A stretch of 64,000 nucleotides of DNA from Cyanidioschyzon merolae. Taxonomy: Eukaryota. Both the position numbers and the translations under genes were made by a program. Below the pieces are notes generated by a model that worked only from the letters and a program-made list of their open reading frames with translations, was not told where the DNA came from and ran no database searches. The DNA lies in assembly GCA_000091205.1 (NCBI GenBank), contig AP006493.2; one strand, 5' to 3'. Shown here piece by piece: positions 6,306 to 49,594 of this stretch (position 1 is its first letter; each line of letters starts with the position of its first letter).

Positions 6306-6896
6306 ATGATCAAAACGCGTGTCACAGCTTTCGTGCAACTCCCGGTTAGCGCTCAGTCGGGGCGTGCTGCCAGAGTGAACGCGCCGCGCAAGCACCGGCT
6401 GCAATCTCGAAAGTTCGTGCTCCATAGCGAGCTTCGTGTGGACCGTCGTGTTTTTCTGCGAAATAGTCTTGCGGTGTTTCTCGGGAGCCTCACCGCTGCT
6501 TTCTCTGCTTCGCGCACCGACTGGGGCGCGCAACCTGCAAACGCAGAAGTACTACGTCACGCAGCGCCGGGCTACGAGCTGCACGGCGACTACCACGAAG
6601 ACGCAACGCAGGTTGTGCAGTCGATGCGAACAGTAACTAGGTTGGAGCGGGGGACTCCTGGAATGAAAGAGAAAGTAGACGCAACTCGGAAGCAAATGAA
6701 CGATTTTGTCGCGCTTTACAGGAGGAACCCAAACGTTGCAGGGGCCGTGTCTTTCTCAACGCTGTATACTGCGATAAATACGCTGGCGGGTCATTTTGCA
6801 AGCTATGGCAGTACGTATCCTGTGCCGGAGAAAAGGAAAAAGCGCTTGGAGCAACAGCTCAATGACGTGGAGAGGGCCCTTAGTCGAGGTCGCTAG
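6306..6896 (+). CDS. psb27: Photosystem II assembly lipoprotein Psb27, thylakoid-lumen targeted
   Basis: 'HGDYHEDATQVVQSMR..MNDFVALYRRNPNVAGAVSFSTLYTAINTLAGHFASYGSTYPVPEKRKKRLEQQLNDVERALSRGR' matches the cyanobacterial/plastid Psb27 C-terminal signature (GDYxxDT..., INDYISRYRR...SFTTMQTALNSLAGYY.SYG...PEKLKKRL). A bipartite presequence ends in twin-arginine 'DRRVFLRNSLAVFLGSLTAAFSA' (RR at about 6444-6449), a Tat-type lumenal signal. Confidence 0.8.
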   Translation: MIKTRVTAFVQLPVSAQSGRAARVNAPRKHRLQSRKFVLHSELRVDRRVFLRNSLAVFLGSLTAAFSASRTDWGAQPANAEVLRHAAPGYELHGDYHEDATQVVQSMRTVTRLERGTPGMKEKVDATRKQMNDFVALYRRNPNVAGAVSFSTLYTAINTLAGHFASYGSTYPVPEKRKKRLEQQLNDVERALSRGR

Positions 6897-8826: not shown

Positions 8827-11800
8827 GTTTCGAGTCCGCAGGATATGCTTTCGTGCTGCCGAGCATGCCCCTCTGTCAGACTCTGGTCCAGGCGCAAGAC
8901 CCGGAAGCATGCGAGCGAGGTGCTCGTTATCCGTCGCTTGGAGACGAGGTCATCAATGGTGATTCAAGCTGCCTATGCAGCGAGATCGAGAGCGGTCTGT
9001 TTGCGCACTACACGGCTATGTAATCCAGGTATCAAAAGGAGGCACGTGAATAAATCCATGGAGCTGGCGTGGTTTGTTATCCGTACACTGCTTCGTCTTC
9101 ACGGCATCTGTCGGGCCACTGTATTCGTCCATACTCGCCACAACAGTGCGTTTCATCTCTTGGAAGAATTTGGCAAACCTCAGCATCGGTGGTAGGATCC
9201 AGATTCTTGTGACTCCAGCTCAATGACGTGGAATGTTCAGCGGGCTCGAGGGTCGCACCGCAGATGGTGTTGAGAATTGAGGATAAGCGGCGGTTTCGAG
9301 GCCGCGGAGCCCATTGTTTCTGACGGCAACGATACAGGAAAACTCTCTAACGCTCTGGATGACCTAGTAAAAGATATGAGTGAAACGCAACTTTTGTAGA
9401 AGCTTCAACGGCGGCAACGCAATTGGCCTCAGTGAATTCCCCATGCATCCCTGTTTACTTGCAATTCCATACGGAATATCGCCAGGATGTTTCGAAATCG
9501 AATGTCTGCACTCGGACTGCATCTTTCGATGCGCTATATGTTTCGCGACATGCGTTCTTGGCACCGTGCCTGCATCCGATACGAATATCGATCCACATTT
9601 TCCAATGCCTCAGACACCACTCCGTGAGCAATGCTTTGATTTAATCGTAGTCGCTCCGGGGAACTAGATGTCTATACAACTATGTCCTTGATTTTGCTCC
9701 ATGAACGCGTGCAACTCTATTTGCCCACCTAATAATGAACAGCGGGAGCTGCAGGCATGGAAATCTGCAGGTTCGGCTATGCTTCCGTCGTGAGCGCCAC
9801 GGCGACGTATATCCGTACGCGCTCTTCATGTTGACGTGATGTACAGTGCCACCTTCGCCAAGGAATACTCCATGGGTTCCACAGCGCGCCTGAAAGCATC
9901 AGAGACCCATTCATCGCGGTATGAATCAGAAGACTTTCCGAATTTTCCTCTTTCCAACGGGATCGAGCACTCGATCTCCTACCGATGGTGGACGCCTCGC
10001 GTCTAAAGCGAGCTTCAGATCCAACTATTGAGAAAGGATCGGCGAGCTCGAGATGCAATCTCAGAATTTCATTGGCACTGAATCATATCACATATACGAA
10101 TCAAACACCAGAAAAGGTGTCGAGAACCGAGCTTTCGGGAAAAAAGCTGATCAAGCTGCAGCGGCACGGCCGACCTCCGTTGTCGCGGTGATACCACTCA
10201 TATCCAGAGGCGAGCGTTGCTCGACGACATGAGATAACCCTTTCATTCCTAGCCTTGTTTCAAAATACGTCAAGCCTTTAAGCAGTATCACGAAGTGTTC
10301 ATCGAAATGCGTCTCGATGGAAGCGTCTGAGTACGGCTCGGAGCGGTCTCGCACGGAGCACGCAACAACCGCGTCGTATATTCTATTTCATAGAAAAGTG
10401 CAGCTCGATAATCGTTCACCAGTGACCAAGGGCGCGTGCTGCTAGTGTATATATGCGGTGCTGTAGCCTTGCTGGATCGCTGAACCGTACCATACCCGTG
10501 CTTTGCTCCTGGTGAGAGCTCAATCTCTTCTTTGCTGGCGACAGATATTTTTCATCGCAAGTCGACAGCCTTTCAGTAAAAAACCCACGTTGAGCACGAA
10601 ACAATTACCTCAAAATTTTGCTATAGATAAATCCACTGGACGCTGCGGAACCACGATCCAGATTCGAGTGTTGACCGAGGTGTCAGCTCTCGATGGAGAA
10701 ACTCCGTGCGAGCATGGTTGTTCGTGGAGTCACACAATGGAGCAAGGCTTTCGGCATCGATTGCCGCACCATCTGACTTTCGGTCAGCTTCTCGGACACT
10801 ATCTTATGCATCCGTCTTTTTTCTCACGCTGTCACTGTCCAGCAGTTTCAGCGCGCACTCGATCTCTTGACGCATGTACATTGTCATGAACGCTTCCGGG
10901 GGAATCGTGCAGAATCGATTGCTACTCTCTCATACTATCTCGTCGAAGGAATAAGGAGCCCAGAGTATACGCGCTTCTTGACGTCCAGCGACATGCACTA
11001 TCACTGAACGACGCGACTTACCCGTCAATTCTTTCTTCAGCTTTTTGAACAAGTTCGCGAACGCCCGCTTCTTGCTCGAGTACAACCAAAATCGTCAGGC
11101 GCTCAGCGTGATCTCAGATATTCCGACGAAAGCTCGTCCCCATGAGGCATTTTGACGCTGGTTTTGCGCTCTGAATGAAGCGTCCAGAGTATCCTACTCC
11201 TCAGCTCGCTGCGATGAGTCGAGCGTTGAGATGGGCTCTCACACCGTCTCTGCGTTCCTCGGTATGCTCCCTGGCGCCCTTCATGCATTACTTCCAATGA
11301 TAGTCGGCCCTGGCAAATCTGAACAGCTCCATCTGCGTCCCATTCAGGTTTTTGAAGCCGTCTTCTTGATTTAGCGGCATGGTGCCGTAGATCATGCCGT
11401 ATACCCGGGATCTAGGCAATATCTTTCCTTGCATCTGCTTTGAACGTTCGGAGACGAATCTCGTTGTCCGACCTGGGCCAAGGTTACGCGGAGTGCATGT
11501 GTGCCGATATTCTTTAAATCTTCGTCGTCCTCGTAAACTCTTTTTCATTTCCTCTCAGTAAACGAGAATCCCTGAATATGCTTCTCCTGTGCACTTCGCG
11601 TGGGTGCTCGAATACTTCCCAGTTGCTCGCAGGGACCGGCTCCTTCCTCGCCCTTTCTATCACTTAACGGGGCGGGATCGAAGAATGAACTATTTTCTAT
11701 TACCATTTTTTATCAAGAATTGGGCGGAATGGGTTGGTCGTGGGCCCGGGGCTTTCGCTCTTCATGCACGTACCCGTGATTCCCCAAAATGCCTCATCAT

Positions 11801-11920
11801 CAACTTGTTCGTCGCAAGCACGCCCACGGAACGAAGCGCGTCTTTACATTCCCTCCTGGTGACGAGCAGAGACGCAATAGACCAGTGCAGGGCTGGTGAG
11901 GGTAGCGGATGACTTGTCGG

Positions 11921-12232
11921 TTAACGGTCGGCGAAGAATGATATCACTGGTGCGAAGAACTCGTCCTTAGATCCGAGCACGTACGCCATGCGTTTGGCAA
12001 CAGACAATTCGCCTTCGACTGGGTTCAACCAGGAAGAATAGGCACGTACGAAGAGCACTTCGACGCCACTCTTGTCCGCGTATGCCTTGCCCGCTTTTGC
12101 CGAATGGAAGGCGACTTTGTCTAAGAGCAAAACAGAAGACTGTGCGAAGAAGCATACACGAGAAGTGCGTAGACGAAGGGCGCTGTGTTCTGCAGTCCTG
12201 TTCATTTGACCAGTTATAGACAATCTCTCCAT
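11921..12232 (-). mobile_element. decayed DDE transposase fragment (Tc1/IS630-like C-terminal region), copy 1
   Basis: Translation 'LLLDKVAFHSAKAGKAYADKSGVEVLFVRAYSSWLNPVEGELSVAKR' resembles the Tc1/IS630 C-terminal block (LDNAxxHxxKxVxxWL...xFLPPYSPDLNPIExxW). Not part of an intact ORF. Paralogous to 53810-54169. Confidence 0.55.
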
Positions 12233-14493
12233 GGAATCGCCTTTAGGGCTACACTCAACAGATTGGTCGCTTGTCTCTTCTTCATGAACAGCATTTCGCT
12301 ATTATATGCGTGGCAACAGGCAGGCCAACGATTGCTCCCGAATGAGATCTAATCGAGTCAGACGAGCCCCTGTCGCTCCTGTACTGAGCATTCGCGTTTC
12401 AATATAGAATCGTTAGTGTATTCTTCAATGCACGACGGTCCCTGATGGAAGCAGGTATTTTCGTTTTACAGGCATTCTGTAAATCTCTGTTCTAATTATA
12501 AAAGAAGCACCTCGCTGCGGGAATGGATGAATGCGACCAAGCTGCATGGACGCTCCATGTCGACTGATGGTTCGCTGAAGACAGATAGGGAGCCTCTTCG
12601 TGCCCTCTACAGCACAGACTGCAACTTACAGCCATGTGCTGTATTTTCGGTGTACCAGACTACGAGGCACAGCGCCCTGGATCCCTGGTCGATGCGTCCG
12701 AGCAGCGCCTGCTCAACAGCTCCGTACCCGTGCGAAACCTGGCTTGCTAGCACGTCCTGTGCTGCCCAAACTAGACGCTAGCCGAGCGGTGCTGAACACT
12801 TCAAGGAGCACTCGTTGCCTCGCAGGAAGCATGCGCTCGGACAGCAACGGTGATGGAATACGAGCTACTCGGACTCGTTCGCGGGCTTGGATCTAGAGCC
12901 CTGCACGTCGAAGAGTAGCAACCCATGCGGCCTTCTCATGTGGAAACCAAACTCCTGGAGCGGTGATTTCGTTTCCGTCTATAGAGACGGAACTTGGAAG
13001 AGGTCTGTGTTTCCCGGCGCAGTGATTATGGCATGGTGGAACCAAGAGAAGCGACAACTACTCCACTTCCCGATTAAAATCAAACACTGGATTGCGCGCT
13101 ATGCTCATGCCTTTGTGCTTTTTTTCGAACCGTTTCTAGATGCGAACTCTCTGTGCAGTCGAAGGAGAGTAACATGGTCTGGCTGTCTCATACATAGTTG
13201 CAGCATTCCCGGTTGTATTTTCGGAGTGGCACCTTCGGAGCTGTGCCCTTGAAATTCGATACGTCACCGGATTCAAGATCATTCGCGAGGCTGTCGAAAC
13301 AGGGATCGTCAAACAAGCGACTTGATCATTCAGTTCATACGGATAACGCTCCGTTCTTTTCCTTGCCTTACTTGAGGCACGCTCCAATCACCCACTCTTC
13401 AACTTCACTAACTTTCTGTTTTAAACCGATTCGTGGGCATAGCAAGTGGCGCCGTTGGGCACTCAACGAAGACTACTTGACGTCATTTATTGAGGACCTA
13501 TTCTCACGCCCGTGCCGAACGTGTATTGAATTTCTAATTTCAGATCATCAATTTCGTTCTAAAGGAAAATTCGTCTCTCTTTATGGTCATGGATAATGCG
13601 GCATTCGACGGCAGCCTGATTCCTCTCCTGGGGGCATGCGCTCACAGACTCCCGTCGCTTCTGTTTGCATGAAAATGGGCCTTGGACTCGGAATCGAGTA
13701 GTCGCAGCGATCGCATCGAGCGGAGATAGTGTCAGCAATTGCACGAAGAGCGCGTAGACGGGTCTGCATTGCCTCGACTTATTCCCCAGCCTGGAGTTTC
13801 CATCTGGTAGTGATTCATTATGGACGAAATCTCGTTCCACACACACGCTATCGAATGGAACAGCGTGCGCTTGCGTGTGCAGCGGACAGAGCGCTTGCCA
13901 CGGCGATCGACTAGAAAAAGTCCGTGATCGTAGTGTACGCGGCCAGGCGCAGAAACGGAAGAGGCATCCACCGGAGCCTTCTGTACTCGTCAAGAGCGTC
14001 TACAAAGCAATGAAGCAATCCTTCATGCACCTCAAGACGGCCCTCGATTGATGAGTTGTGTTGAATGCATACGGGAACACCTGGCCTATGCCAAATGTCA
14101 TCCCTGGGAAGGACGTTCTGAGGCCGTCCATAAACAAGGTGAAAATGTTAAGTGAATCGTAGATCGCAACTTTCGCCTGCGTATGAAGTGCTTCGACTGC
14201 AGCCGGAAGCTGTGTAAACAGGTCTTGTACGCTGCCACCGACATCCTTCTGCTACTGACAATGGAGCTGGACGGAGACACTGGTGTACTCAAGGCCGAAG
14301 ATGAGGGAAAGGGAGAGCAAAAAAGTCGCAGCCAGAGCCTCCAAACGCTGTTTTTGATGGCAATGGAAACAGACCCAAACTTTAGCTTGTATGCCCGTGT
14401 TCTGTGACCTGCCCTATATTTTTCTGACATGCGGTTTAGATGCAAAGGGCCAATGTTCGGTGTGTACGAATCGCTGTACTGCAAATGTGACTG

Positions 14494-14640
14494 AAAGAAA
14501 AACCAAGCGCGCTTCGAATGCGTTCTAACACGTGCTCATAGTCTCTGGTATGTATCCCCTCAACCGTGGACACTGTTCACTACTTGAGCATGGAAGAAAA
14601 ACCAAGCGCGCTTAGAATGCGTTCTCGCACATGTTCGCGA
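14494..14640. repeat. two copies of a ~47-bp direct repeat spaced ~98 bp (GAAAAACCAAGCGCGCTT[C/A]GAATGCGTTCT..)
   Basis: Copy at 14494-14540 is downstream of the ORF; copy at 14592-14640 covers the last codons of the 14580-15962 ORF. Confidence 0.7.
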
Positions 14641-17746: not shown

Positions 17747-18871
17747 TTATTCGCTCTTTGCGGTGCGTGGTGCCGCAGCGGAACCAGCCCCGAATCGGCT
17801 CAGTTGTGGATCCTCGAGCCCCAGCTCTCGAAATGCAGTATGCCTGATACGACAGGCGTCGCAGCGTCGGCACGGTTTCCCCGACTCATCTAACGGATCG
17901 TAACAGCTGTGCGTGATGGAGTAGTCCACACCGAGCGCCAGGCCTGTGCGAATGATCTCGGTCTTCGGCATCTGCAACAGTGGTGCATGGATTCGAAAGC
18001 GCCTTGCATCGGAAGGCGCCACACCAGCGCGGGTGCCCAGCTCGGCAACCCGCTCAAAAGCGTGAAAGAATTCCGGCCGACAGTCGGGGTACCCTGAGTA
18101 ATCCACAGCGTTTGCGCCGATGAAAATATCGTAAGAGCCCTGAACCTCGGCGAGGGCGAGCGCATACGCGAGAAATATCGTATTCCTCGCTGGCACATAG
18201 GTCAGCGGGATTGTTTCTGGGGTATGTTCCCAGACATCGTCGACGTTCGCTGCTTTGGGAACGGGTATATCGGGAGCTGTCAATGCTGATCCGCCAATAC
18301 TTCCGAGGTCAAGGCGGATCCAGTGCTGTCCAGTGACTTGCTGCGCTCGCGCTACGCGCCGTGCCGCTTCGAGTTCGCAGCGGTGCCGTTGCCCGTAATC
18401 GAAACTCAGGGCCTTGCAGATGAACCCTTGCGAGCGTGCAATCGCCAGCGTCGTTGCTGAGTCCAGACCACCGCTGAGCAGAACGATAGCGACGGCACCG
18501 TTTTGAACTCCAGCCTGTCCCTGAGCGAGACCTCTAGAAGCAGACCGTGGAGGTGTAAGGCTGCTCGCACCGCGAACAGACCCAAACCTCGAGTGCAGCG
18601 CCGAGCTGGCACGATCGGCGGTGAAGCGCGTGTTCAGGCCGGCCTGCAATGATAACACGTCGCCTGTGAAGCACACCGATGGGTGCTGATCACCGTTATT
18701 CCAAGTGCTTGTACAGCGTTTACCCAGCTGGTAAAGAGATACGTTCTGCAACTTGTGGCAGCGTTCGGCGTTTGCGGAACGGTATCGAGACGCCTCAGCC
18801 CATGGTCCCGTGCACTGCGTCGACCGCAACCACAGCCGACAAGCGGAGCGCAGTGCAACTGCACCGAACAT
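17747..18871 (-). CDS. queC: 7-cyano-7-deazaguanine synthase QueC (bacterial-type) with ~125-aa N-terminal extension
   Basis: '[19 protein letters not shown]' PP-loop, '[16 protein letters not shown]', '[10 protein letters not shown]', '[12 protein letters not shown]', and C-terminal zinc ligands '[22 protein letters not shown]'. This is collinear with E. coli QueC (SGGQDST...FDYGQRH...PGRN...SGYPDCRDEF...C..G..C.C..C..R). The extension is S/R/A-rich, presequence-like. Confidence 0.85.
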
Positions 18872-19134
18872 GTTCTCGATAGCTTCAGTGCACTACTACA
18901 AGCGTCACCAAAACCATTACCTTCAGAAGAAGCAACAACGTCACCAGAGGCTTCTGCCGTTTCTGCTGCACACCTTGCGTCCACGAACGCCTATAAAGCT
19001 ATTGCGGAGCGCGCGATCGTTAGATCAGGGCGCTGTGGAAGCGCACGAGCTCGAAGCCACTGCTTCGAAGCCGAGTTGTTGCTAGACCTCTCGGGTTTTG
19101 CTACCGCTGGACTCGGTTTGCGTCAACAGGCACA

Positions 19135-20238
19135 GTGAGGAAGCTGGTGCTAGATCACCTACCTCCTGGCGGTATGTGGACAGGATTGGTTGTTCCTGGT
19201 CAACAGTGGAAGAACACTGGAACAAGACGACGTTGCCGCAGGTGCTTAACTGGGTCGACACGAGCGGCTCTCGCGCAACCCTGGCAACGCCTCGTGCAGT
19301 GCCCGGTGCTGAAGCAACCCGCCAGGAACGCTCTGGCGGTGACTGCGACGCATCCGGCGCTTCGACGTGCGCTTGTCTCTGTGCTACTCGTGGGGCTATG
19401 TTTCACCAACGACAGCCGGGTGTACGCAGTTCCCGCTCACGAACCTGTGGAACAAACGGACTCGACCGAACGGAGCCAGGCTATCGAACGTGAGCTCGAA
19501 GCAAAGTTTACGCAAGCGCTACGCCTCACCGAACAAGCTTCCTGGGAAGAAGCGGACAAGGCATGGAGTGCAGTGTTGGCCTTGGACCCGGACAACGGAG
19601 CCGCGCTCTCGAACCGAGGTCTCGTTCGCTTGTCGTTGCATCGCCTGGACGCAGCGCTCGCAGACCTCCAGCAGGCCGTCGAACGCTCACCCGCTGAGCC
19701 GGTCCTTCACGAGAACCTCGGTCTCGTCTATGAAGCCCGTGGTGAATGGGAACCAGCGCTCGAAGAGTATACAAAAGTTTTACAGAGCGTTCCAGCAAGC
19801 GCGACGGCCTTGATAAACAGGGGAAACGTGCAGGTCTCGCGCGGAGCGTACGCTGAAGCGCTTGCAGACTACCAGGCGGCTGCAGACGCGGAAACTGGTC
19901 TGGCTGCTCCACGCGAAAAAATGGCCCTGGTTATGGCACAGCTGGGACGTTCTGACGACAGTATTCAGATCCTGCGTCAGGTGGTACGCAAGTATCCAAC
20001 ATATGCCGAAGCGCATGCAGCGCTTGCAGCGGTGCTCTGGGGCGCAAAACATGACTTTCTCAGTGCCGAGGATCAATGGGCCCGTATTTCGAACAACGAA
20101 TTACGGGAGGAGATGTCGGAACTCGAAAACCTGCGCATCTACTCCCGATGGCCACCGCGTATGATTGAATACCTGCGCGAATTCTTGAACTTGGAGACCG
20201 CAAATCAGGAGATCGAGTCTGCCGGTTTTGTGCTCTAG
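19135..20238 (+). CDS. TPR-repeat protein with N-terminal presequence and hydrophobic segment (cyanobacterial-type)
   Basis: Consecutive TPR units ('AWSAVLALDPDNGAALSNRGLVRLSLHRLDAALADLQQAVERSP', 'HENLGLVYEARGEWEPALEEYTKVLQSVP', 'ALINRGNVQVSRGAYAEALADYQAA', 'AEAHAALAAVLWG'). Preceding hydrophobic 'LVSVLLVGLCF' and a basic N-terminus. Confidence 0.6.
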   Translation: MRKLVLDHLPPGGMWTGLVVPGQQWKNTGTRRRCRRCLTGSTRAALAQPWQRLVQCPVLKQPARNALAVTATHPALRRALVSVLLVGLCFTNDSRVYAVPAHEPVEQTDSTERSQAIERELEAKFTQALRLTEQASWEEADKAWSAVLALDPDNGAALSNRGLVRLSLHRLDAALADLQQAVERSPAEPVLHENLGLVYEARGEWEPALEEYTKVLQSVPASATALINRGNVQVSRGAYAEALADYQAAADAETGLAAPREKMALVMAQLGRSDDSIQILRQVVRKYPTYAEAHAALAAVLWGAKHDFLSAEDQWARISNNELREEMSELENLRIYSRWPPRMIEYLREFLNLETANQEIESAGFVL

Positions 20239-24338: not shown

Positions 24339-25628
24339 ATGCCATTATCGGTTATTCTGTTTCACTGCTCTGGTTCCTTCAACAGCTCGGAGCGTTATCG
24401 GGGACAACTGGCCCGGAACCCCGTGTGTGTGTGTGAAAGAGCGGTGTCGCAGCGCTGGAGCCGAACACCGATTGTTCTTGTTGCTGCCGCTGGTGCTGCT
24501 GAGCAGCGCGCGCCCTTGAAAGAGTGCGCTTGTACCTTGGACTGCACGGATATGTGTGTCTTCGTGCGAGTGCCTGGCAGGCCGGCGGCACTACGGAGTG
24601 TGGTTTGGAAGCGCAGCGCTCTTCTGTGCCAGTGGTCACCGGTCGCCTGGTGGTCGCGTCCTCGCCTCGCGCTTGGTTGCCGTGGAACGCGTCGAAGTGC
24701 CGCGGAGAGCACACCAGCGACGCTCGGACGAGTTATTTGCACAGCGCTTTCGTCCAGTCTACGAGTACGGGTCAACAAGGCGCTTCGAGAGCGCTTCTCT
24801 CGACGACAAGCGGATGAGCTGGTGCGTTCTGGCCGGGTCACGATTAACGGAAACCCGGCAACGCTCGGAGCGCGCGTCTCCGTGGACGACGTGATCGCTG
24901 TCGACGGAGAGCTGGTTTCCCTGTCGCAGAGCGCGTTCATTGCAGAAACTGACTTGGCTGCTATTGATTCGTGCTTTGTATATTTCAAGTACTGGAAACC
25001 GGTTGGTGTCGAGTGTACTACCGCCCCAGCCGTACCCGGCAACGTGCTAGAGGCGTCGGGGCTCGGTGCCTGGGCGGACCAGCACCATCTTCGTTTGTTC
25101 AACGTCGGACGTCTAGATAAAGACTCAACGGGCGTGTTGCTACTGACGAATGATGGACGCGTCGGGAACGCGCTTCTAGGAAGGAACAGTGGTTTTGTGA
25201 AAAGCTATCTGGTCACGCTGGACAAACCGATAGCTGACGAGGATATCGAGGCCATTCAGCAAGGCTTTGTGGTCGAAACCGAATACCGGCACGACAAGAA
25301 AGTGAAAACGATTCGCTTGCCAACCTTACCGTGTGCAGTGCGACGGCGCCCGCAACTCAACGAGATCGAAATCGATATTCATGAGGGCCGTAACCGTCAG
25401 ATTCGGCGAATGCTCATTTCACTTGGGTACCAAGTACGACGGCTGCATCGATTTGCCTTTTGCGGTATTGAACTGGGGCCAGAGCTAGATAAAGAGGGTT
25501 CCTGGGCGCCACTGAACGAACGTGAACTTGGAATCATTGCGGAGGCGCTGCGTATGCATGCGGAGCACAAAAGCATGCCCAGTCACAAGCGGCCTACCCA
25601 GTTTCGCATTCTCGATACAAGATCATGA
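24339..25628 (+). CDS. RsuA/RluB-family pseudouridine synthase with S4 domain, presequence-bearing (organellar)
   Basis: S4 'RADELVRSGRVTINGNPATLGARVSVDDVIAVDG'. Catalytic 'FNVGRLDKDSTGVLLLTNDGRVGNALL' (RLD..S.GLLL.TNDG), '..KSYLVTLDKP', 'IHEGRNRQIRRM'. ~150-aa Cys/Arg/Ser-rich N-terminal leader. Confidence 0.8.
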   Translation: MPLSVILFHCSGSFNSSERYRGQLARNPVCVCERAVSQRWSRTPIVLVAAAGAAEQRAPLKECACTLDCTDMCVFVRVPGRPAALRSVVWKRSALLCQWSPVAWWSRPRLALGCRGTRRSAAESTPATLGRVICTALSSSLRVRVNKALRERFSRRQADELVRSGRVTINGNPATLGARVSVDDVIAVDGELVSLSQSAFIAETDLAAIDSCFVYFKYWKPVGVECTTAPAVPGNVLEASGLGAWADQHHLRLFNVGRLDKDSTGVLLLTNDGRVGNALLGRNSGFVKSYLVTLDKPIADEDIEAIQQGFVVETEYRHDKKVKTIRLPTLPCAVRRRPQLNEIEIDIHEGRNRQIRRMLISLGYQVRRLHRFAFCGIELGPELDKEGSWAPLNERELGIIAEALRMHAEHKSMPSHKRPTQFRILDTRS

Positions 25629-26285: not shown

Positions 26286-27032
26286 TCAGTCAGATGGCTT
26301 CTCTTTGGTATAATTGCTTCTTTTGCGCGCTTCCTCGCTTACTCTTTGCATGATAAACGTATACGTCTTATCAAAGTCAGGAACTGCTCGAAGCTCCAGC
26401 CTCGCTCCGCCCTTGAGCAGAATCACGTAGTCTGCGGAGATACCGCCGAACCTTCGAACGTATCGTACTTCCTCAATATCACGATAAACTACTTCGGTTT
26501 CATCACGACCCATGAATCCTGCCCGAACGTATATGCTGCGGTTCGAAATACGGTAACGAACCCAGTACTGTCGCGCTAGCGCTGCCGCGAAAGGTATCAC
26601 GCCGATAACCGTGAGAATCGAAAGCCCCGGCAGAAGCAACTCCGTCCAGGAAGGCGGTCCATCATAGAACGTCTGTTCAGGCTCTAGCGATGATGGTTTG
26701 CGAATTGCTTCTTCCTCCTCGTCCACGGACTTTTTGCGAACCTTCATCACCGGAGACGGAAGTCTGCGAAGCGGCGGCCTCTGCGTGCGCCGTCCCACAC
26801 GCCGTTTCACGCTGGTGGGCGTCACAAGCGGTTGCACCACGCGTGCCGACACAACAGCTGGTAGCGCTACGAACATGTTTGAGACGTATGACGTTCCAAC
26901 TTGGACTGCTGTGGGAAGCGCTGTTCGCCAGCGTCTCAGTGAATGCCGGGCGTTCTGGTTGCCAACGCCCAGCTCAGTTCCAGAGCACGAGTAGCACACT
27001 AGTGTACCTCTGTGAACACCTTGAAAAACCAC
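26286..27032 (-). CDS. membrane protein with bacterial-type PH-like domain (cyanobacterial-type), presequence-bearing
   Basis: Presequence, then 'YDGPPSWTELLLPGLSILTVIGVIPFAAALARQYWVRYRISNRSIYVRAGFMGRDETEVVYRDIEEVRYVRRFGG..ADYVILLKGGARLELRAVPDF': a TM hairpin followed by a bPH-like fold. The assignment is tentative. Confidence 0.35.
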   Translation of the reverse strand: MVFQGVHRGTLVCYSCSGTELGVGNQNARHSLRRWRTALPTAVQVGTSYVSNMFVALPAVVSARVVQPLVTPTSVKRRVGRRTQRPPLRRLPSPVMKVRKKSVDEEEEAIRKPSSLEPEQTFYDGPPSWTELLLPGLSILTVIGVIPFAAALARQYWVRYRISNRSIYVRAGFMGRDETEVVYRDIEEVRYVRRFGGISADYVILLKGGARLELRAVPDFDKTYTFIMQRVSEEARKRSNYTKEKPSD

Positions 27033-27471: not shown

Positions 27472-29520
27472 TCATATGGGGTTTTCCTGGGCAAAGTCTA
27501 AGACAGCAAGTTTGTAGATACATAAATCGACCGCAGGATATGCGTGCAGGGGGCGTCGTTTTGTACTCGGCTTGTCCAAATGCTCCGCATATTTGCGCTC
27601 GTTACCGATCTGCGCAAAGTGCACGCGAACGATCGAGAGCGGCTCCACACAAACTTGTGGATCGACTCGGAGCGACACTCGGCAGAATCTTGTCTCACTG
27701 TTGCCGAAACAGTCATTTGGTGTCGATGTACCCTGGAGCGTGAACATCGCTGGCGAACGAAACGACAAAAGCGCTTCGTAGCGGACCTGCACGGATGGAG
27801 TTTCGTTTTGGAAGGATGCGTGCGCAGACGCACGACTCGTTGAAAAGAGCAGCATGATTGTTGCCGGACAGATCGGCTCCGACAGCTGGACTATCACTGA
27901 GGCAGAGCCACGGGGAACGTGCCAACACCGACCGCGTGAAAGCGGCGCATGAAGACCCTGCGACTGCAGCATAATGGCTGGCGCAAAAGGCAACGGGCGA
28001 TGGCAGTTGCGTGCAGCTCGCGATCCGAAAGCAGCCCTCAAGACGCAGCGCACGCGGTTGCTCCAGTAGCTGACAAATGTCCTTGTCCAGGAAGGCTGGG
28101 CGCGAATGATTCGTGCTCCAGCCGAGGCGAGCGCATAATCCGATGCTGCTGTCGACATCCACTGCGAGTTGTGCATGTGCGCACGCTGTCGACGCAGCAT
28201 GCCTTCGAGGCGCTCAAATCGAGTTTCCAAGTTGCGTACCAGTTGCATAGCGTCCGTGCGAACTGTTGCTAATGACTCGCGAAGCTCCCGTAGCTCTGTC
28301 GAGATTGCGGATGCCTGTTGTACATGTACATGTTGGAGATTATCGAGATCCACAAGCGCGCCTGCCTTGTTGTCACGCAAATATCCAAGCAATGTCTCCA
28401 CATCCGGCTGTGATTGAGAATCATCCCCGCGCCATGGGGACGAGGACGTATTCTCCATTCGAGTCAGTTGTTCGGAGAGGAGCGCTTCAATCCGATCAAT
28501 TCGATGGACGAGCTCATTCCAGTGGGAATCAGCGCGAGCAGGAGCGCGATGACGTAGCCACTCGGAATACCAGTGCATTCCAGGCAAAACATGATACGAG
28601 GCGATCGAAGCGCTCCACAGAGCTCTCCACGTGGATCTCTGGAACACGGATAAATGCCTAGCCCAGTCGAGTCCAGATCCAAAGTTCGATATCGCGCGTG
28701 GCCTCGTAGTTTGTATTGTTTCCCCTTTCATAGACGCTTTTGCATGGTGAGAGAATTGACGCAACCACACAGGCACACTACCTAATCGTGCAATGAGTTG
28801 GCCGCTCCGTTGAAAGCCGCTATAAAAGACGCTCACCAATTTTCGCGGCATCAGGTTCCCGGAGAATACTCTTCCCCGATCAGGGATCGAAAGCAATGCG
28901 GAGAAGGCTTTTCGATACGCTGGTGCGCCGGGCTTGAGACACCCTGTCAGAACACAGAGCAAACCGATAAGCACGAACATAGCTAGCTTGAAGGAACGAC
29001 GACGACGACGGGGTCGTGCTGCAAGGCTGGTCGTTTCCCAGCGGCGCCCGCGGCCGCCAGACGCAAGTCGCCCGTGTATGCTTGACCAGCGTTCGTGAAT
29101 TCGCGACACCGCCCATGCCAGAGAATAACTAACCAGATTCAAACTCCATACGAAGCGCAGTGCATCTGAAATCCGCTGAGAAGGCGCGTCTCGATCAGTG
29201 GCCTCGAAATGCACGCGCCTTGGGGTATGATTTGCCGGTAAGCGCGTTGCCCGCCCTGACGGGGTGCCAACAAGTTGGACATTGCCCGTTGTGCAACCAT
29301 CATCGTCAACTGGAGGTCGACACCTGCGGATCTTCTCACTGTGCCGAGTTGAATAATGATGCGCAAGCTTAGGTTCACTTCTGGGCGCGTCACCGCGCTC
29401 TGGGCTCTCCACAGAGAAGGAAAGACGCCGTCGCGTGCGTGGCGTTGCTTTCGGCTCTATAGCGGTTGGCGTATTGTTCCGCATGAAGCAACTCGTTACT
29501 ATTGTGCAGTGCTGCCCCAA
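27472..29520 (-). CDS. SUN-domain (Sad1/UNC-84) nuclear-envelope protein
   Basis: Single TM 'FKLAMFVLIGLLCVLTGCL'. Long coiled coil ('RIDRIEALLSEQLTRMEN..LRELRESLATVRTDAMQLVRNLETRFERLEGMLRRQ'). C-terminal domain 'ASDYALASAGARIIRAQPS.T...GRCWHVPRGSASVIVQLSEPICPATIML' follows the SUN-domain pattern (DYAL.S.GA.I...S.TY...GNCW.F.G..G...+.L...I..T.VT.EH). Confidence 0.55.
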   Translation of the reverse strand: MGQHCTIVTSCFMRNNTPTAIEPKATPRTRRRLSFSVESPERGDAPRSEPKLAHHYSTRHSEKIRRCRPPVDDDGCTTGNVQLVGTPSGRATRLPANHTPRRVHFEATDRDAPSQRISDALRFVWSLNLVSYSLAWAVSRIHERWSSIHGRLASGGRGRRWETTSLAARPRRRRRSFKLAMFVLIGLLCVLTGCLKPGAPAYRKAFSALLSIPDRGRVFSGNLMPRKLVSVFYSGFQRSGQLIARLGSVPVWLRQFSHHAKASMKGETIQTTRPRAISNFGSGLDWARHLSVFQRSTWRALWSASIASYHVLPGMHWYSEWLRHRAPARADSHWNELVHRIDRIEALLSEQLTRMENTSSSPWRGDDSQSQPDVETLLGYLRDNKAGALVDLDNLQHVHVQQASAISTELRELRESLATVRTDAMQLVRNLETRFERLEGMLRRQRAHMHNSQWMSTAASDYALASAGARIIRAQPSWTRTFVSYWSNRVRCVLRAAFGSRAARNCHRPLPFAPAIMLQSQGLHAPLSRGRCWHVPRGSASVIVQLSEPICPATIMLLFSTSRASAHASFQNETPSVQVRYEALLSFRSPAMFTLQGTSTPNDCFGNSETRFCRVSLRVDPQVCVEPLSIVRVHFAQIGNERKYAEHLDKPSTKRRPLHAYPAVDLCIYKLAVLDFAQENPI

Positions 29521-39559: not shown

Positions 39560-40348
39560 ATGATGCGTCACGTGCCGTGCTTCTTGTATTCCTTTCTAGG
39601 TAACAGCTCCACCGCGCGTCGGACTGATGTACAGCGTGCTCGGCACTTGCAGGCACAGCTGAGCACTGCTTGCTGGCGACGGGCACAGCGAACGCGCACA
39701 GCACAAGGCCTCGGTGACGGCTGCAGGGTGGCGTTCTGGCGAGGCGTCCCCAGGAGGCCAGTCGCAGAGCGATGGTGGAGTCCTCGAATGGACGTCAACT
39801 CGAATGACTTTCGCGTAGGCTTGACGATAGAAGTGGATGGTTCACCGTTTAAAGTGATCGAGCACTTGCACGTCAAGCCGGGCAAAGGGGCTGCTTTTGT
39901 GCGCACCAAACTGAAGAATCTGCTCACCGGAAATACGATGGAACGAACGTTTCGAGCTGGTGAAACAGTTCCAGAAGCACAAGTAGAAAAGTTTGAGGCC
40001 CAGTATACGTATTCAGCCGAAAATGAATACGTGTTCATGAACATGGCGACTTTCGAGGAGGAGCACGTGCCCAACGAAGTGGTCGGTGATACGGCCAAGT
40101 ATCTGCGCGTGGGGCAAGACGTCTCAGTCACGAAATGGAACGGGAAGCCCATTGAAGTCGAGGTTCCAGCGACGCTGACCTTGGAAGTTGTTGAGACGGA
40201 TCCAGGCGTGCGCGGAAATACGGCTCAAGGCGGATCCAAGCCAGCGAAACTGGAGACCGGCGTCGTCGTCCAGGTGCCGTTGTTTATCGAGGTTGGCGAG
40301 AAAATCAAAGTGGACACGAGAACTGGCTCCTATCTATCGCGGGGATAG
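39560..40348 (+). CDS. efp: bacterial-type translation elongation factor P (EF-P) with ~76-aa N-terminal transit-peptide-like extension
   Basis: From Met at ~39788: 'MDVNSNDFRVGLTIEVDGSPFKVIEHLHVKPGKGAAFVRTKLKNLLTGNTMERTFRAGE...' is collinear with bacterial EF-P over its full length, including the KPGKG modification loop. C-terminal 'GEKIKVDTRTGSYLSRG'. Confidence 0.9.
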   Translation: MMRHVPCFLYSFLGNSSTARRTDVQRARHLQAQLSTACWRRAQRTRTAQGLGDGCRVAFWRGVPRRPVAERWWSPRMDVNSNDFRVGLTIEVDGSPFKVIEHLHVKPGKGAAFVRTKLKNLLTGNTMERTFRAGETVPEAQVEKFEAQYTYSAENEYVFMNMATFEEEHVPNEVVGDTAKYLRVGQDVSVTKWNGKPIEVEVPATLTLEVVETDPGVRGNTAQGGSKPAKLETGVVVQVPLFIEVGEKIKVDTRTGSYLSRG

Positions 40349-44367: not shown

Positions 44368-45774
44368 TCAGCGTGTCCAGTACTGGGGACCGTAAATCGC
44401 GAGCCCCAGCGTCAGACAGATCGTCACACTGATACCTGCGTATGCGTAAGCGTACTCAATGTTTCGCTCGCGGTAGAGCTCGCCTACAAAAGTCGATACT
44501 GTACTCAGGCAGCCATTGAACCCGAGGACGAACGCTTTCATCATGACGACGACCCAAAAAGAGCTCACCCGCAAGAGTACACCATCTGCAACCGCATCAA
44601 AGCAACAAGCCAGCACATTTGCGGCAAGCGTCCCGAGCGGGAGCCACGGATGTCGCCCATTGAGATGCACCGAGAGTTGCCATCGTAGGATCACGCCGAA
44701 CGGTGCAAAAATGCACGCCATCCAGTAAGATTTGCGGGTCTGGTCGGGATCCAAGCCAACACCGACAGCTGCTAAGGTCAGCAGGATTGCACTCAGGACA
44801 CCGCATATCACAAAAGCATAGAAACGTCGGCGGTGGTATGCAATATCCTCATGGGATCCGATGGGGATCTTGGGGCGACGACGGCCCCAACGATCGTGGC
44901 CACCGGTGAGCGCCGCTGCTGCGCGAGCGACCTCATCCACAGCCGACAGCGAGCGTCGCGGTTGCCTTGCCCGCGAGCGCAGCTCCCGATATCGGAGGTA
45001 GAGTTGGGCAAGCTCCTCGTCTCGACGGGCGTAGACATGCGATATGAGGAAAAATCGAATGGATCGTTCAGTGTGCAAACCGAGCGTGAACGAGAAGATC
45101 GGGATCTCCAGCCCAATGACCAGAGCGAATAGCGCGCGGAGCCACTGATTCGATGGGCTCTTGCCGCGTGCAAACATCGCAACTAGCTGCTGATTCCAGC
45201 TCGAAAACGTTGTTAGGGAACCGCAGAGACCTGTCGCCAGTCCAGTATGTATGTACGGCATGTGCGGTTGGAAAGCATCATCGCTACCAATCAAAAAGCC
45301 TATGAGAAACGAGCCCAGCGCATTCGGTGGTAGCACTTTGAAAACCGCGCTGTATTCAGAGGTCACTGCCCCGACCGAGGGCCCGAACACGAGGTCGAGT
45401 CCGGTGCGGGCGAGCGTTCCTCCGATGCCGAAGAGAGCCATATGAAAAACGTCGTTCAGGAGGAACGCGAACTTGCTTCCCAGGAAACCGGTGTTATACG
45501 GGTTGTGCACCTCTGCGCGGGAGGCAACGTTCTGCTGGGTGCTCACGCGTTTCGCCAACGAAACCCGCGGCGAAGGTGCACCGCCTTCGTCTCCCTCGGG
45601 CCCTACGAGACCATTCTCCAAGTTTGATAAGCCATTGGAATCAACCGCGCCCAATTCATCTGGCGCCACTGGAAAAGCTCTCAAGAAGCTCTTTTCTGCG
45701 AACACTCGTTCGAGCGAAGCCGGGCCCGACTCGTCCGGGGTCATGGAAAAATCACAGCCACGAGGGCGCTTCAC
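44368..45774 (-). CDS. FEX: fluoride export protein (eukaryotic FEX; tandem CrcB/Fluc domains)
   Basis: Two CrcB-like repeats each with the 'G..TTFS(T/S)' signature ('GLCGSLTTFSSWNQQ' and 'GCLSTVSTFVGE') and multiple TM helices, preceded by a ~100-aa soluble N-terminus. Confidence 0.75.
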   Translation of the reverse strand: MKRPRGCDFSMTPDESGPASLERVFAEKSFLRAFPVAPDELGAVDSNGLSNLENGLVGPEGDEGGAPSPRVSLAKRVSTQQNVASRAEVHNPYNTGFLGSKFAFLLNDVFHMALFGIGGTLARTGLDLVFGPSVGAVTSEYSAVFKVLPPNALGSFLIGFLIGSDDAFQPHMPYIHTGLATGLCGSLTTFSSWNQQLVAMFARGKSPSNQWLRALFALVIGLEIPIFSFTLGLHTERSIRFFLISHVYARRDEELAQLYLRYRELRSRARQPRRSLSAVDEVARAAAALTGGHDRWGRRRPKIPIGSHEDIAYHRRRFYAFVICGVLSAILLTLAAVGVGLDPDQTRKSYWMACIFAPFGVILRWQLSVHLNGRHPWLPLGTLAANVLACCFDAVADGVLLRVSSFWVVVMMKAFVLGFNGCLSTVSTFVGELYRERNIEYAYAYAGISVTICLTLGLAIYGPQYWTR

Positions 45775-47161: not shown

Positions 47162-49594
47162 CTAAAATTCGTCCCAGAATGTCATGAGCGCCTCGGCCAA
47201 CCGGTAGTACGTCTCGCGAAGATGCCGGAGTTGGCGGCCGACATGCCGTGCTCCGCGCACGTGCTCGTCGTACACCCGGGGATCAATGCCGGACTTGTTC
47301 GTGGCCCGCAAAACTGCGTTATGCTCCGCCAAGCGTGTGTGTCGCACTTGGATCTGCTGAAACACATTCTGCATGGCGAGCAGACACACACGAACGACGT
47401 TGCGCTGGATCGCATCAAGGTCGACGTGCCAGCCGCCTTCGAGATCCAGCCAAGATGCACCGGTTGGCGTGTCGCTCTGTGTCATGGAGTTTCGGTAGCT
47501 GTCCTCGAGGTCAGGTGCGTATGCACCATCTGGAGACAAACACAGTGTCGACGTTGGGTCTGGGGATCCAGAATCTAACGCGCTCGGCGTTACGTCGATA
47601 CCTGAACGTGAAGAAGCGAATCCAGGTCCGATCGCACGCTCCGTTTTCTGCCTGAGCTCCAAGTCCGGCTCATGATCTGCAGCAGACGACTGAGCTCCGT
47701 TACGCCAAGAGCCGGGAAACGGTTCTCGTGGCAGAGAGATTGGTACCGCGGTTACAGCACTGGTTAGGTGGTCTCCGAGGGAAATCCAGCCGTCCTGAAA
47801 AAGATAAAAAAGATAAGCTCGAACTGCGCGTGCCGGTAGAAGCGCGTGCTCCTCGCATGACCTGGTGGATAGAGGCCCGTACTCCAAGACCATCCGCCAT
47901 ACGCGATGCAAGTACAGATCGCCCATGGCCAAGAGCATGCCTTCCAGCACGTGTGTGCGATACTGGTCGAGGATGTATGCGTACGCAGGTGCGTACAGCT
48001 TTGTACCGTGCCGTTCGTGAATCGTCAGAAAGCCGACGCGATCGTCGGCGAGCTCTTCCAGTATGCGTTCAGCATCGAGCGCGCTCACTGTTTCCATGCA
48101 TTGATCACTGGGAAAACGATAGCGATATCGGATCACATAGAGGATCTGATCGAGAGAGAAGCCCTTCTGCGCACCAGCCAGACTTGTCAGCGACGGATCC
48201 GAGCATCGGGCTGGCAATACGTGCACAAGTGAACCATGCTGTACAACTCGCCGCAGATAAAGCATTGCATTCAACAGCACTGCTGTACGCTGTACCATGA
48301 GCCGATGCGGCATCGACGTTGCCGCGTCACCAGCATGACTGTCGTCGCAGCTGTGAAGCTGCTCTGCGGCCCAGGCCGCCATATGGATATCGCGGATCGC
48401 GTCCCGTATGAAACGTTCATTCACGCGCAGGTACGTCCCCAGGGCAAGCATCGTGCTTTCGCCCTTCTGACTGGAGTCCGCTGTCTCTGGAGCGGGTGCT
48501 GGTGCGGCTTGCATCTCCCTATTGCTCACCGATGGCTGTGGCGTTGCGGCGTATGGCTGATCCACCGCTTCGTCATCAGCACCTGTATCCAGTTTCCGTA
48601 ATCGTAAGCGCCGTCGTGCTCGCAACCTCGTTTGGGGCTCATGATCGGCGCTTTGCGGTGATGGCTTTTCATCGTTTGCAGCAGAGCGATTCGCCAACAA
48701 CGCAGGTGCAGGTACCTGTCTTGTCGAGTCTATTTCGCTCAGCGTGCACGCTTCCTGATCCATCGTGTCTCCCGGTTTGGAGTGCTCGCGAGCTTCGGGA
48801 TGCTCATCATCGAGCTCTAGACTGAGAAGCTCGGCGAGCACGCGTCTGGCTGTGCACTGCTCCAGGAGACCGATTCCGACCAGCCGCTGAAGCGTGCTCC
48901 TGATAAGCTTCGATTGGTTGTCGCTATCTGGCGTAGCGGTGAGCAGCCAGTCCATGGGCACTTTTCTAAACGGTGTCAGATAGTTGCACAAGCTCACTAT
49001 TGTGCTGGTTTCTAGTTGCGTTTCATGATGATCGGCGCGTGGACTCGGGAGGATCGTCTCTCCTGCGTCATTTGAATGCAGCACCAAGTCCTGGTCCTTC
49101 CGCCAGTGCCTACAATGAAGCTCGGTGATGTAGCGCTGGAGAAACGGAAAGCCGTAGAGCCATAGCGCTCCACGCCTCGAAAGCGTGTACTGGCACGAGG
49201 CGGGTGCCTGATCCAGTCGGCTGTATGAGTACTGCACAACGCCGCGCTCGAGGAGCTTCACCAAAGCCACACGCAAAGATGTTCGAAGCTTTGAGTGGCT
49301 AAGTAAGTGTGCGTTTGAGCAGCGTGCACTCGTACGTAGCTGCTTTCGGAGAGAGCGCTCGAGCTCTCGCAAGCTCGCCGACGAGCGACAACTCAGACAT
49401 CGAACGACCGCTGCAGCGACAGGTCCAAGTAGGTGCTCCACTACCAGCACGTTCAGCGCATCTAGTTCACGCCACATTCGCACCGAGCCTGCTTCGCAGG
49501 ACGAGCACAGCGCGAATTGTAGGAAGCAGCCACTTGTCCGGAGGAACCATACGGGGAGACCTCGAAAGCTCGGCGTTCCGCGGCCGACGGCCAC
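47162..49594 (-). CDS. large hypothetical protein; weak resemblance to RNA polymerase III subunit RPC3/RPC82 (winged-helix repeats)
   Basis: 810-aa ORF with clean coding periodicity. N-terminal 'LLGPVAAAVVRCL..LRELERSL..LRVALVKLLERGVVQY' and C-terminal 'LRHLRETYYRLAEALMTFWDEF' loosely recall Rpc82 winged-helix and C-terminal helix segments. Acidic/Ser-rich inserts. The assignment is tentative. Confidence 0.25.
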   Translation of the reverse strand: MAVGRGTPSFRGLPVWFLRTSGCFLQFALCSSCEAGSVRMWRELDALNVLVVEHLLGPVAAAVVRCLSCRSSASLRELERSLRKQLRTSARCSNAHLLSHSKLRTSLRVALVKLLERGVVQYSYSRLDQAPASCQYTLSRRGALWLYGFPFLQRYITELHCRHWRKDQDLVLHSNDAGETILPSPRADHHETQLETSTIVSLCNYLTPFRKVPMDWLLTATPDSDNQSKLIRSTLQRLVGIGLLEQCTARRVLAELLSLELDDEHPEAREHSKPGDTMDQEACTLSEIDSTRQVPAPALLANRSAANDEKPSPQSADHEPQTRLRARRRLRLRKLDTGADDEAVDQPYAATPQPSVSNREMQAAPAPAPETADSSQKGESTMLALGTYLRVNERFIRDAIRDIHMAAWAAEQLHSCDDSHAGDAATSMPHRLMVQRTAVLLNAMLYLRRVVQHGSLVHVLPARCSDPSLTSLAGAQKGFSLDQILYVIRYRYRFPSDQCMETVSALDAERILEELADDRVGFLTIHERHGTKLYAPAYAYILDQYRTHVLEGMLLAMGDLYLHRVWRMVLEYGPLSTRSCEEHALLPARAVRAYLFYLFQDGWISLGDHLTSAVTAVPISLPREPFPGSWRNGAQSSAADHEPDLELRQKTERAIGPGFASSRSGIDVTPSALDSGSPDPTSTLCLSPDGAYAPDLEDSYRNSMTQSDTPTGASWLDLEGGWHVDLDAIQRNVVRVCLLAMQNVFQQIQVRHTRLAEHNAVLRATNKSGIDPRVYDEHVRGARHVGRQLRHLRETYYRLAEALMTFWDEF

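Follow-up and report, generated by a model that had tools for sequence, protein, structure and literature searches.

The stretch of DNA analysed in this work, 64,000 nucleotides of Cyanidioschyzon merolae (contig AP006493.2) and referred to below as the window, contains on its minus strand, at positions 17747..18871, an intronless coding sequence, CMK180C, in which a long leader is followed by the enzyme QueC. The listing of open reading frames (ORFs) gives this gene an ATG start and 374 codons plus a stop, and the translated product of 374 amino acids is identical to the C. merolae 10D protein BAM80547.1 (XP_005536583.1, UniProt M1VCZ6). The genome project labelled it "probable transcription regulator exsB", exsB being the older name of QueC, while UniRef and JGI name M1VCZ6 7-cyano-7-deazaguanine (preQ0) synthase, and the RefSeq label is likewise QueC. 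CMK180C is already annotated, and the new part is its biological implication, since the molecule itself is orthodox: it is a genuine QueC of the bacterial type, encoded in the nucleus and expressed. No published discussion of a QueC, of preQ0 or of de novo queuosine (Q) synthesis in the Cyanidiales was found in the literature searched.

The catalytic domain occupies residues 128-350 (17822..18490, minus strand) and has the adenine-nucleotide alpha-hydrolase fold. Over these residues the Pfam QueC family PF06508 was matched with E=3e-68 and 229.8 bits against a cut-off of 22, covering profile positions 2-209 of 210, and the NCBIfam QueC equivalog TIGR00364 was matched from end to end (profile positions 1-201 of 201) with 177.8 bits against a cut-off of 150.3. 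The cut-off of the E. coli-type model NF008317 was not reached (108 versus 378), and CMK180C therefore belongs to the general QueC type and not to the enterobacterial one. The best sequence matches in the PDB were the QueC structures 2PG3 (E=1.7e-24) and 3BL5 (E=8e-23). In the AlphaFold2 model the core has a predicted local distance difference test score (pLDDT) of about 80-98, and in Foldseek the model matched Bacillus subtilis QueC (3bl5) with a target-normalised template modelling (TM) score of 0.81-0.83 and E=8e-13. These results directly support the assignment to the enzyme family and the integrity of its fold.

The motifs of the family were also found to be intact when CMK180C was compared in an alignment of 60 sequences, which consisted of five algal homologues and 55 other sequences. 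In the PP-loop ATP-pyrophosphatase motif SGGLDS (residues 133-138; 18458..18475, minus strand), S133, G134, G135, D137 and S138 are invariant and L136 is nearly so. In the DYGQRH motif (residues 158-163; 18383..18400, minus strand), Y159 and Q161 are invariant and G160, R162 and H163 are at least 90% conserved. The cysteine cluster of the zinc site, C323-x10-C334-x2-C337-x2-C340 (17852..17905, minus strand), is made up of four invariant cysteines that align with the cysteine cluster of 3bl5 and 2pg3. An earlier reading made from the sequence only, which had listed every QueC hallmark as present (the SGGxDS PP-loop, DYGQRH and a C-terminal four-cysteine zinc site), was thus accurate, and the loss of catalytic residues, which it had named as a result that would speak against it, is contradicted by the alignment. 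By homology, CMK180C would convert 7-carboxy-7-deazaguanine (CDG), together with ammonia and ATP, into preQ0.

In comparison with the bacterial enzymes of known structure, YkvJ of B. subtilis (3BL5) and ECA1155 of Pectobacterium (2PG3), CMK180C has the same domain from end to end, with the same motifs and fold, but it is encoded in a nucleus, carries an obligatory disordered leader of about 125 residues and a C-terminal tail of about 15 residues, and does not lie in an operon with queD, queE or queF. As a molecule, CMK180C is an ordinary QueC; its unusual aspects are the host and the leader. We also considered the QueC-like proteins of defence and DNA-modification systems (Cap9, DpdC and QatC). 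Cap9 of the type IV cyclic-oligonucleotide-based antiphage signalling system (CBASS; PDB 9NTO) has the same fold and was the top Foldseek match of CMK180C (TM 0.81), but its sequence match is weak (E=3e-5, against E=1.7e-24 for QueC) and is restricted to residues 249-344. Since CMK180C passes the cut-off of the orthodox TIGR00364 family and has no partner genes of these systems nearby, an assignment to the Cap9/QatC/DpdC type was rejected.

The leader, residues 1-125 (18497..18871, minus strand), is presumed to be an organelle-targeting presequence with a spacer, on the grounds of its composition, its absence in bacteria and its disorder. It consists of 12% Ala, 10.4% Arg and 12.8% Ser, and has 15 basic (Arg and Lys) against 5 acidic (Asp and Glu) residues. 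The only methionines in CMK180C are M1 and M301, and in-frame stop codons lie close upstream, so that any AUG-initiated product must include the leader. In the AlphaFold2 model, residues 2-106 have a pLDDT below 50 and no secondary structure, and the leader is therefore an unstructured extension and not an additional domain. Each of the five algal homologues has an N-terminal extension, of 34-129 residues, and the remaining 55 aligned sequences have none. Across three genera the leaders have an amino acid identity of about 21% and are essentially unalignable, with lengths kept at 126, 126 and 129 residues; such free divergence with an open frame and a steady length is the usual behaviour of targeting peptides. 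The presequence-like leader of about 125 residues described in the sequence-only reading is thus borne out as basic, poor in acidic residues, disordered and foreign to the bacterial homologues, and judged from these features it most likely imports CMK180C into an organelle.

The N-termini of two of the homologues depend on the gene model. For the Cyanidium caldarium QueC (locus L001, 10001-10843), the NCBI model has 280 residues and starts with MLLRRLS, the EukProt model has 352 residues, 72 of them additional at the N-terminus, and the ENA call has 244 residues; these models disagree on the start of this protein and hence on the length of its leader. The fifth Cyanidiales-like QueC, P0111 (L009, 3324-4562; Logan SRR31152685), comes from a genome of 72% guanine plus cytosine (GC) and has tails rich in Ala and Ser as well as an insertion with a run of histidines, RNHHHHHEDD, inside the catalytic core. 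Its called start codon is GTG, and an internal methionine followed by ALRAAALVRLAQRAAHYRARRG is a more plausible eukaryotic start.

The gene lies on an 852,849-bp C. merolae chromosome record among eukaryotic genes, and its GC content of 0.59 is like that of its surroundings (0.51-0.59 in the window). Four Cyanidiales genomes share the gene order bPH_2 - pseudouridine synthase - kinase - TPR - QueC - RINGv - ATP synthase d - Psb27, namely C. merolae, the Cyanidioschyzon-like GCA_041825655.1 (L010), Cyanidiococcus yangmingshanensis (L011) and Cyanidium caldarium (L001). The same block of genes is also present on metagenomic contigs that encode an identical QueC protein, and the divergent pair of TPR and QueC genes is retained on a fifth contig, the GC-rich one that encodes P0111. 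The nuclear location and the vertical inheritance of the gene are therefore directly supported. Furthermore, CMK180C was expressed at about 105-129 expression units in all eight samples of a published RNA sequencing (RNA-seq) study, in which two neighbouring genes were at about 20 and 186 units. Between genera, the QueC core shows nonsynonymous differences per site (pN) of 0.10-0.12 and synonymous differences per site (pS) of 0.72-0.82, at which synonymous sites are saturated, and the dN/dS ratio is about 0.04 where it could be computed. The core is under strong purifying selection.

The relatives of CMK180C were sought in two database searches, one with the whole protein and the other with a profile of four Cyanidiales cores, and the best 120 matches of each were considered. 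In both, algal proteins rank first and are followed by a very flat field of bacterial QueCs with identities of 58-66%, in which the named best matches come from Phycisphaerae (Planctomycetota), Fimbriimonadaceae (Armatimonadota) and Deferrisoma; no cyanobacterial protein was found among the named matches of either search. In a neighbour-joining tree of 164 sequences, the five algal QueCs form a clade that is sister to a large bacterial group including Phycisphaerae, and the three Cyanidioschyzon/Cyanidiococcus QueCs are grouped with a bootstrap of 100%. A scan of contigs with the C. merolae core listed three loci, of Nitrosomonas and two archaea, and in a plasmid collection the named QueCs were proteobacterial, Deinococcus and haloarchaeal, at identities of at most 57%, with no cyanobacteria among them. 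No co-transferred que genes were found beside the closest bacterial QueCs (P0018 and P0033). The synteny and the algal clade in the tree lead us to propose one acquisition in the ancestor of the Cyanidiales, from a bacterium that, judging from these comparisons, was apparently not a cyanobacterium. The single other match labelled as eukaryotic, P0038 of the brown-alga proteome Nemacystus decipiens (EukProt EP00752), is a leaderless protein of 231 residues that falls among bacterial sequences in the same tree, and most likely represents bacterial contamination of that proteome.

According to the literature, only bacteria make queuosine, and eukaryotes must salvage queuine; in a 2025 paper on Chloropicon (PMC12301720), all eukaryotes studied are said to depend on salvage. 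The same paper describes a bacterial-like tRNA-guanine transglycosylase (TGT), QueA, QueG and YhhQ that are targeted to mitochondria in Chloropicon, and a mitochondrion-targeted bacterial-like TGT, QueA and QueG in Galdieria. For red algae, a chlamydia-type and putatively mitochondrial TGT has been reported (PMC2376095), while TGT is not mentioned by Huang & Gogarten (2007). Those bacterial enzymes that act downstream on the tRNA are therefore represented in this class of algae. Like CMK180C, the TGT/QueA/QueG module, with or without YhhQ, is of bacterial origin, encoded in the nucleus and provided with organelle presequences, and the chlamydia-derived TGT is likewise a queuosine enzyme of bacterial origin in an algal nucleus. 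The module would be the logical consumer of preQ0 or 7-aminomethyl-7-deazaguanine (preQ1) made by a QueC pathway, whereas in PMC12301720 it was read as a salvage system that imports preQ1 through YhhQ, with no QueC, QueD, QueE or QueF reported. On the upstream side, the C. merolae annotation lists a GTP cyclohydrolase I (FolE), CMF055C, and a PTPS/QueD-like protein, CMG095C, both of which are expressed.

The interpretation that we favour, with a probability of roughly 0.6, is that CMK180C is a functional, organelle-targeted preQ0 synthase which supplies a bacterial-type organellar queuosine pathway, where we infer the activity, the compartment, the end use in tRNA and that a QueE and a QueF are present. 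On this interpretation, an ancestor of the Cyanidiales would have taken up queC from a bacterium, apparently not a cyanobacterium, and the gene would then have gained an N-terminal extension of 40-130 residues, most likely for import into an organelle. Using ATP and ammonia, and by means of its PP-loop and structural zinc site, the enzyme would turn CDG first into an amide and then into the nitrile preQ0, which would be made together with CMF055C, CMG095C and a presumed QueE. A QueF would reduce preQ0 to preQ1 for the bacterial-type TGT-QueA-QueG module of red algae, and queuosine could thereby be placed in organellar tRNA(Asp/Asn/His/Tyr) with no dietary source in an autotroph of inorganic acid water. 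C. merolae is an obligate photoautotroph that is grown axenically in inorganic medium, and therefore any queuosine that it contains must be self-made.

As the compartment of CMK180C we favour the mitochondrion over the plastid, because the N-termini of the Cyanidium protein and of P0111 look like presequences and because the reported TGT, QueA and QueG are predicted to be mitochondrial; this choice is a guess. By appearance, the start MLLRRLSRAGHLHPSLQRLLPRCYARV of the Cyanidium protein and the internal sequence MALRAAALVRLAQRAAHYRARRG of P0111 resemble classical mitochondrial presequences.

Several observations weigh against parts of this interpretation. When the hydrophobic moments of the leaders were compared with those of shuffled sequences, amphipathicity was not significant (p = 0.13-0.79), and the N-terminus of the C. 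merolae protein, MF, is also compatible with a plastid transit peptide. The bootstrap for the five algal QueCs together is only 46%, and for this reason single acquisition is argued from synteny; likewise, the tree took in no cyanobacterial QueC, so that the non-cyanobacterial origin rests on the ranking of the matches. No QueC of Galdieria or of other red algae was found among the best 120 matches of either search, and TGT, QueA and QueG are reported by name for Galdieria and "red algae" and not explicitly for C. merolae. That one species has both QueC and the downstream module is accordingly a presumption. Finally, the C. merolae gene tables covered, which extend up to about CML100 or roughly half of the genome, gave CMK180C, CMF055C and CMG095C as the only candidates for the pathway, and none of their annotations contained queuine, queuosine, transglycosylase, "radical", exsD or nitrile reductase.

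The same body of evidence can be read in other ways. CMK180C could be a plastid-targeted remnant of the queuosine pathway of the cyanobacterial endosymbiont, as the sequence-only reading had proposed, in which case the leader would be a transit peptide and preQ0 or preQ1 would be provided for plastid tRNAs. The N-terminal extension itself, and the presence of other bacterial-type, organelle-style genes such as those for EF-P and Psb27 in the same window, would agree with this possibility, as would the MF start, since plastid transit peptides of red algae typically have a Phe near the N-terminus. That Phe, however, is missing from the homologues of Cyanidiococcus and Cyanidium and from P0132 and P0111. 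The named best matches include no cyanobacterial protein, although cyanobacterial genomes are very numerous in public databases. Furthermore, predictions place the downstream enzymes reported for red and green algae in mitochondria, the TGT is chlamydial and not cyanobacterial, and the confinement of QueC to the Cyanidiales among the best matches would be odd for an ancient plastid gene. We therefore do not favour a plastid remnant and consider it unlikely. A rather unlikely alternative is that QueC acts alone, with no QueE, either on salvaged CDG or on another carboxylic acid, as a repurposed ATP-dependent amidotransferase or nitrile synthase. It would be in keeping with this that the gene tables up to about CML100 hold no QueE-like annotation, and that in the nearest bacterial relatives queC is not in an operon with queD or queE, which gives no indication that an entire pathway was transferred together. 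On the other hand, all the residues that are invariant in bacterial QueC are kept and the core is tightly constrained, at 60-66% identity to orthodox bacterial enzymes, which speaks against a new substrate. The genome annotation includes FolE and a PTPS/QueD-like gene, and we know of no route for the salvage of CDG.

CMK180C could also be a true QueC whose preQ0 is destined for a product other than tRNA, such as a 7-deazaguanine in DNA (Dpd-like) or a deazapurine metabolite. This would fit the position of preQ0 in bacteria, where pathways to tRNA, DNA and secondary metabolites diverge from it, and the lack of annotations for QueF and the tRNA enzymes in the C. merolae gene tables up to about CML100. 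Nevertheless, neither the window nor the 20-kb flanks of the four orthologous loci contain a DpdA/TGT-like, Cap10, CD-NTase or biosynthetic-cluster partner, the protein is an orthodox QueC above its equivalog cut-off with no more than a weak match to Cap9, and an organelle leader suits a use in organellar tRNA better; such a product is thus quite unlikely. As for an artefact, that is, bacterial contamination or the decaying pseudogene of a recent transfer, the bacterial-like sequence, with 60-66% identity to bacterial QueC, is what might suggest it. It is refuted by the long chromosome record with its eukaryotic neighbours, the synteny in four independent Cyanidiales assemblies and several metagenomes, the GC content like that of the window, the intact ORF, the expression of the gene and a pN far below pS. 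A contaminating bacterial contig and a silent ORF (about 120 units were seen in the RNA-seq data) had both been named in the sequence-only reading as grounds on which it would fail, and neither was found.

The genes identified in the window encode a WD40 protein, a histidine phosphatase, Psb27, mitochondrial ATP synthase subunit d, a RING-variant (RINGv) protein, QueC, a TPR protein, a split kinase (SRPK-like), an RluA-type pseudouridine synthase with an S4 domain, a bPH_2 protein, YIF1, EF-P, iPGM, CrcB, Sec61 alpha/SecY, a UBC enzyme, a YlmH-like S4 protein, Snf7 and a GT2 glycosyltransferase. An intronless nuclear queC amid ordinary eukaryotic genes, as first described, was thus confirmed, with the RINGv, TPR, SRPK-like kinase, WD40, Sec61/SecY, UBC, YIF1 and Snf7 neighbours all identified. 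Its description as a lone QueC holds within the window, where no other que, folE or tgt gene was found among the ORFs scanned, but not for the whole genome, whose annotation lists CMF055C and CMG095C. Scans of the window for tRNA genes and Rfam families gave no matches. Several of the other genes are of bacterial type and apparently organelle-directed: those for EF-P, which has an N-terminal extension of about 80 residues (39560-40348, plus strand), the RluA-type pseudouridine synthase with an S4 domain (24339-25628, plus strand), the YlmH-like S4 RNA-binding protein (57931-59073, plus strand), the bacterial PH (bPH_2) protein (26286-27032, minus strand) and Psb27 (6306-6896, plus strand). Because such genes are common in the window, QueC is no isolated oddity as a bacterial-derived organelle gene.

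The TPR gene and QueC stand head to head, about 220-275 bp apart, in five algal lineages (18872-20238 in the window, and L001, L009, L010 and L011), and the intergenic region between them (18872..19146) is presumed from this conserved arrangement to be a bidirectional promoter. The pairing has outlasted rearrangements elsewhere in the block; besides such a promoter, a functional connection between the two genes may account for it. On the other side of QueC, a gap of 5.7 kb separates the ATP synthase d and RINGv genes in C. merolae (8827-14579) and contains a DDE_3 transposase fragment of 103 residues (11921-12232, minus strand; Pfam E=2e-8). The same spacing is about 300 bp in L010 and about 1.7 kb in L011, with no DDE_3 gene called there, and the fragment appears to be the remains of a transposon specific to this lineage, immediately downstream of the QueC neighbourhood. 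Two long ORFs on the minus strand, at 27472-29520 (682 residues) and 47162-49594 (810 residues), have no significant Pfam domain or only a sub-threshold one; the former seems to be conserved, since a gene of 669 or 670 residues that appears to correspond to it is found at the matching edge of L010 and of two C. merolae metagenomic contigs (L005 and L006). A protein of 468 residues at 44368-45774 (minus strand) has two CrcB matches and was read as a eukaryotic FEX-type double-domain fluoride channel, which is plausible for an alga of acidic volcanic springs.

If the interpretation of CMK180C as an organellar preQ0 synthase is correct, the enzyme would add an upstream de novo step to the algal salvage module and would extend the bacterial-type queuosine enzymes of algal mitochondria from salvage towards synthesis. 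The de novo route would then run from FolE through the QueD-like CMG095C, QueE, QueC (CMK180C), QueF, a bacterial-type TGT and QueA to QueG, and would have been pieced together from genes of several bacterial origins. A conserved, expressed and selected nuclear QueC is hard to square with the view that eukaryotes only salvage, unless the alga itself is able to make or process 7-deazaguanine precursors. It is conceivable, although for the present we would sooner doubt than assert it, that the Cyanidiales would be the first known case of eukaryotes synthesising the precursors of queuosine, and possibly queuosine itself, de novo by a nuclear-encoded, organelle-targeted bacterial pathway. An obligate autotroph of inorganic acid springs would in that case be independent of queuine, the "vitamin" presumed to be required by all other eukaryotes. 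C. merolae has a genome that is described as very small, with 4,775 nucleus-encoded proteins. It can be modified by homologous recombination, and it is a good system for asking whether, and in which compartment, a eukaryote makes queuosine de novo. If QueE and QueF are present and queuosine is made in axenic culture, a textbook generalisation would be overturned in an organism that is open to experiment.

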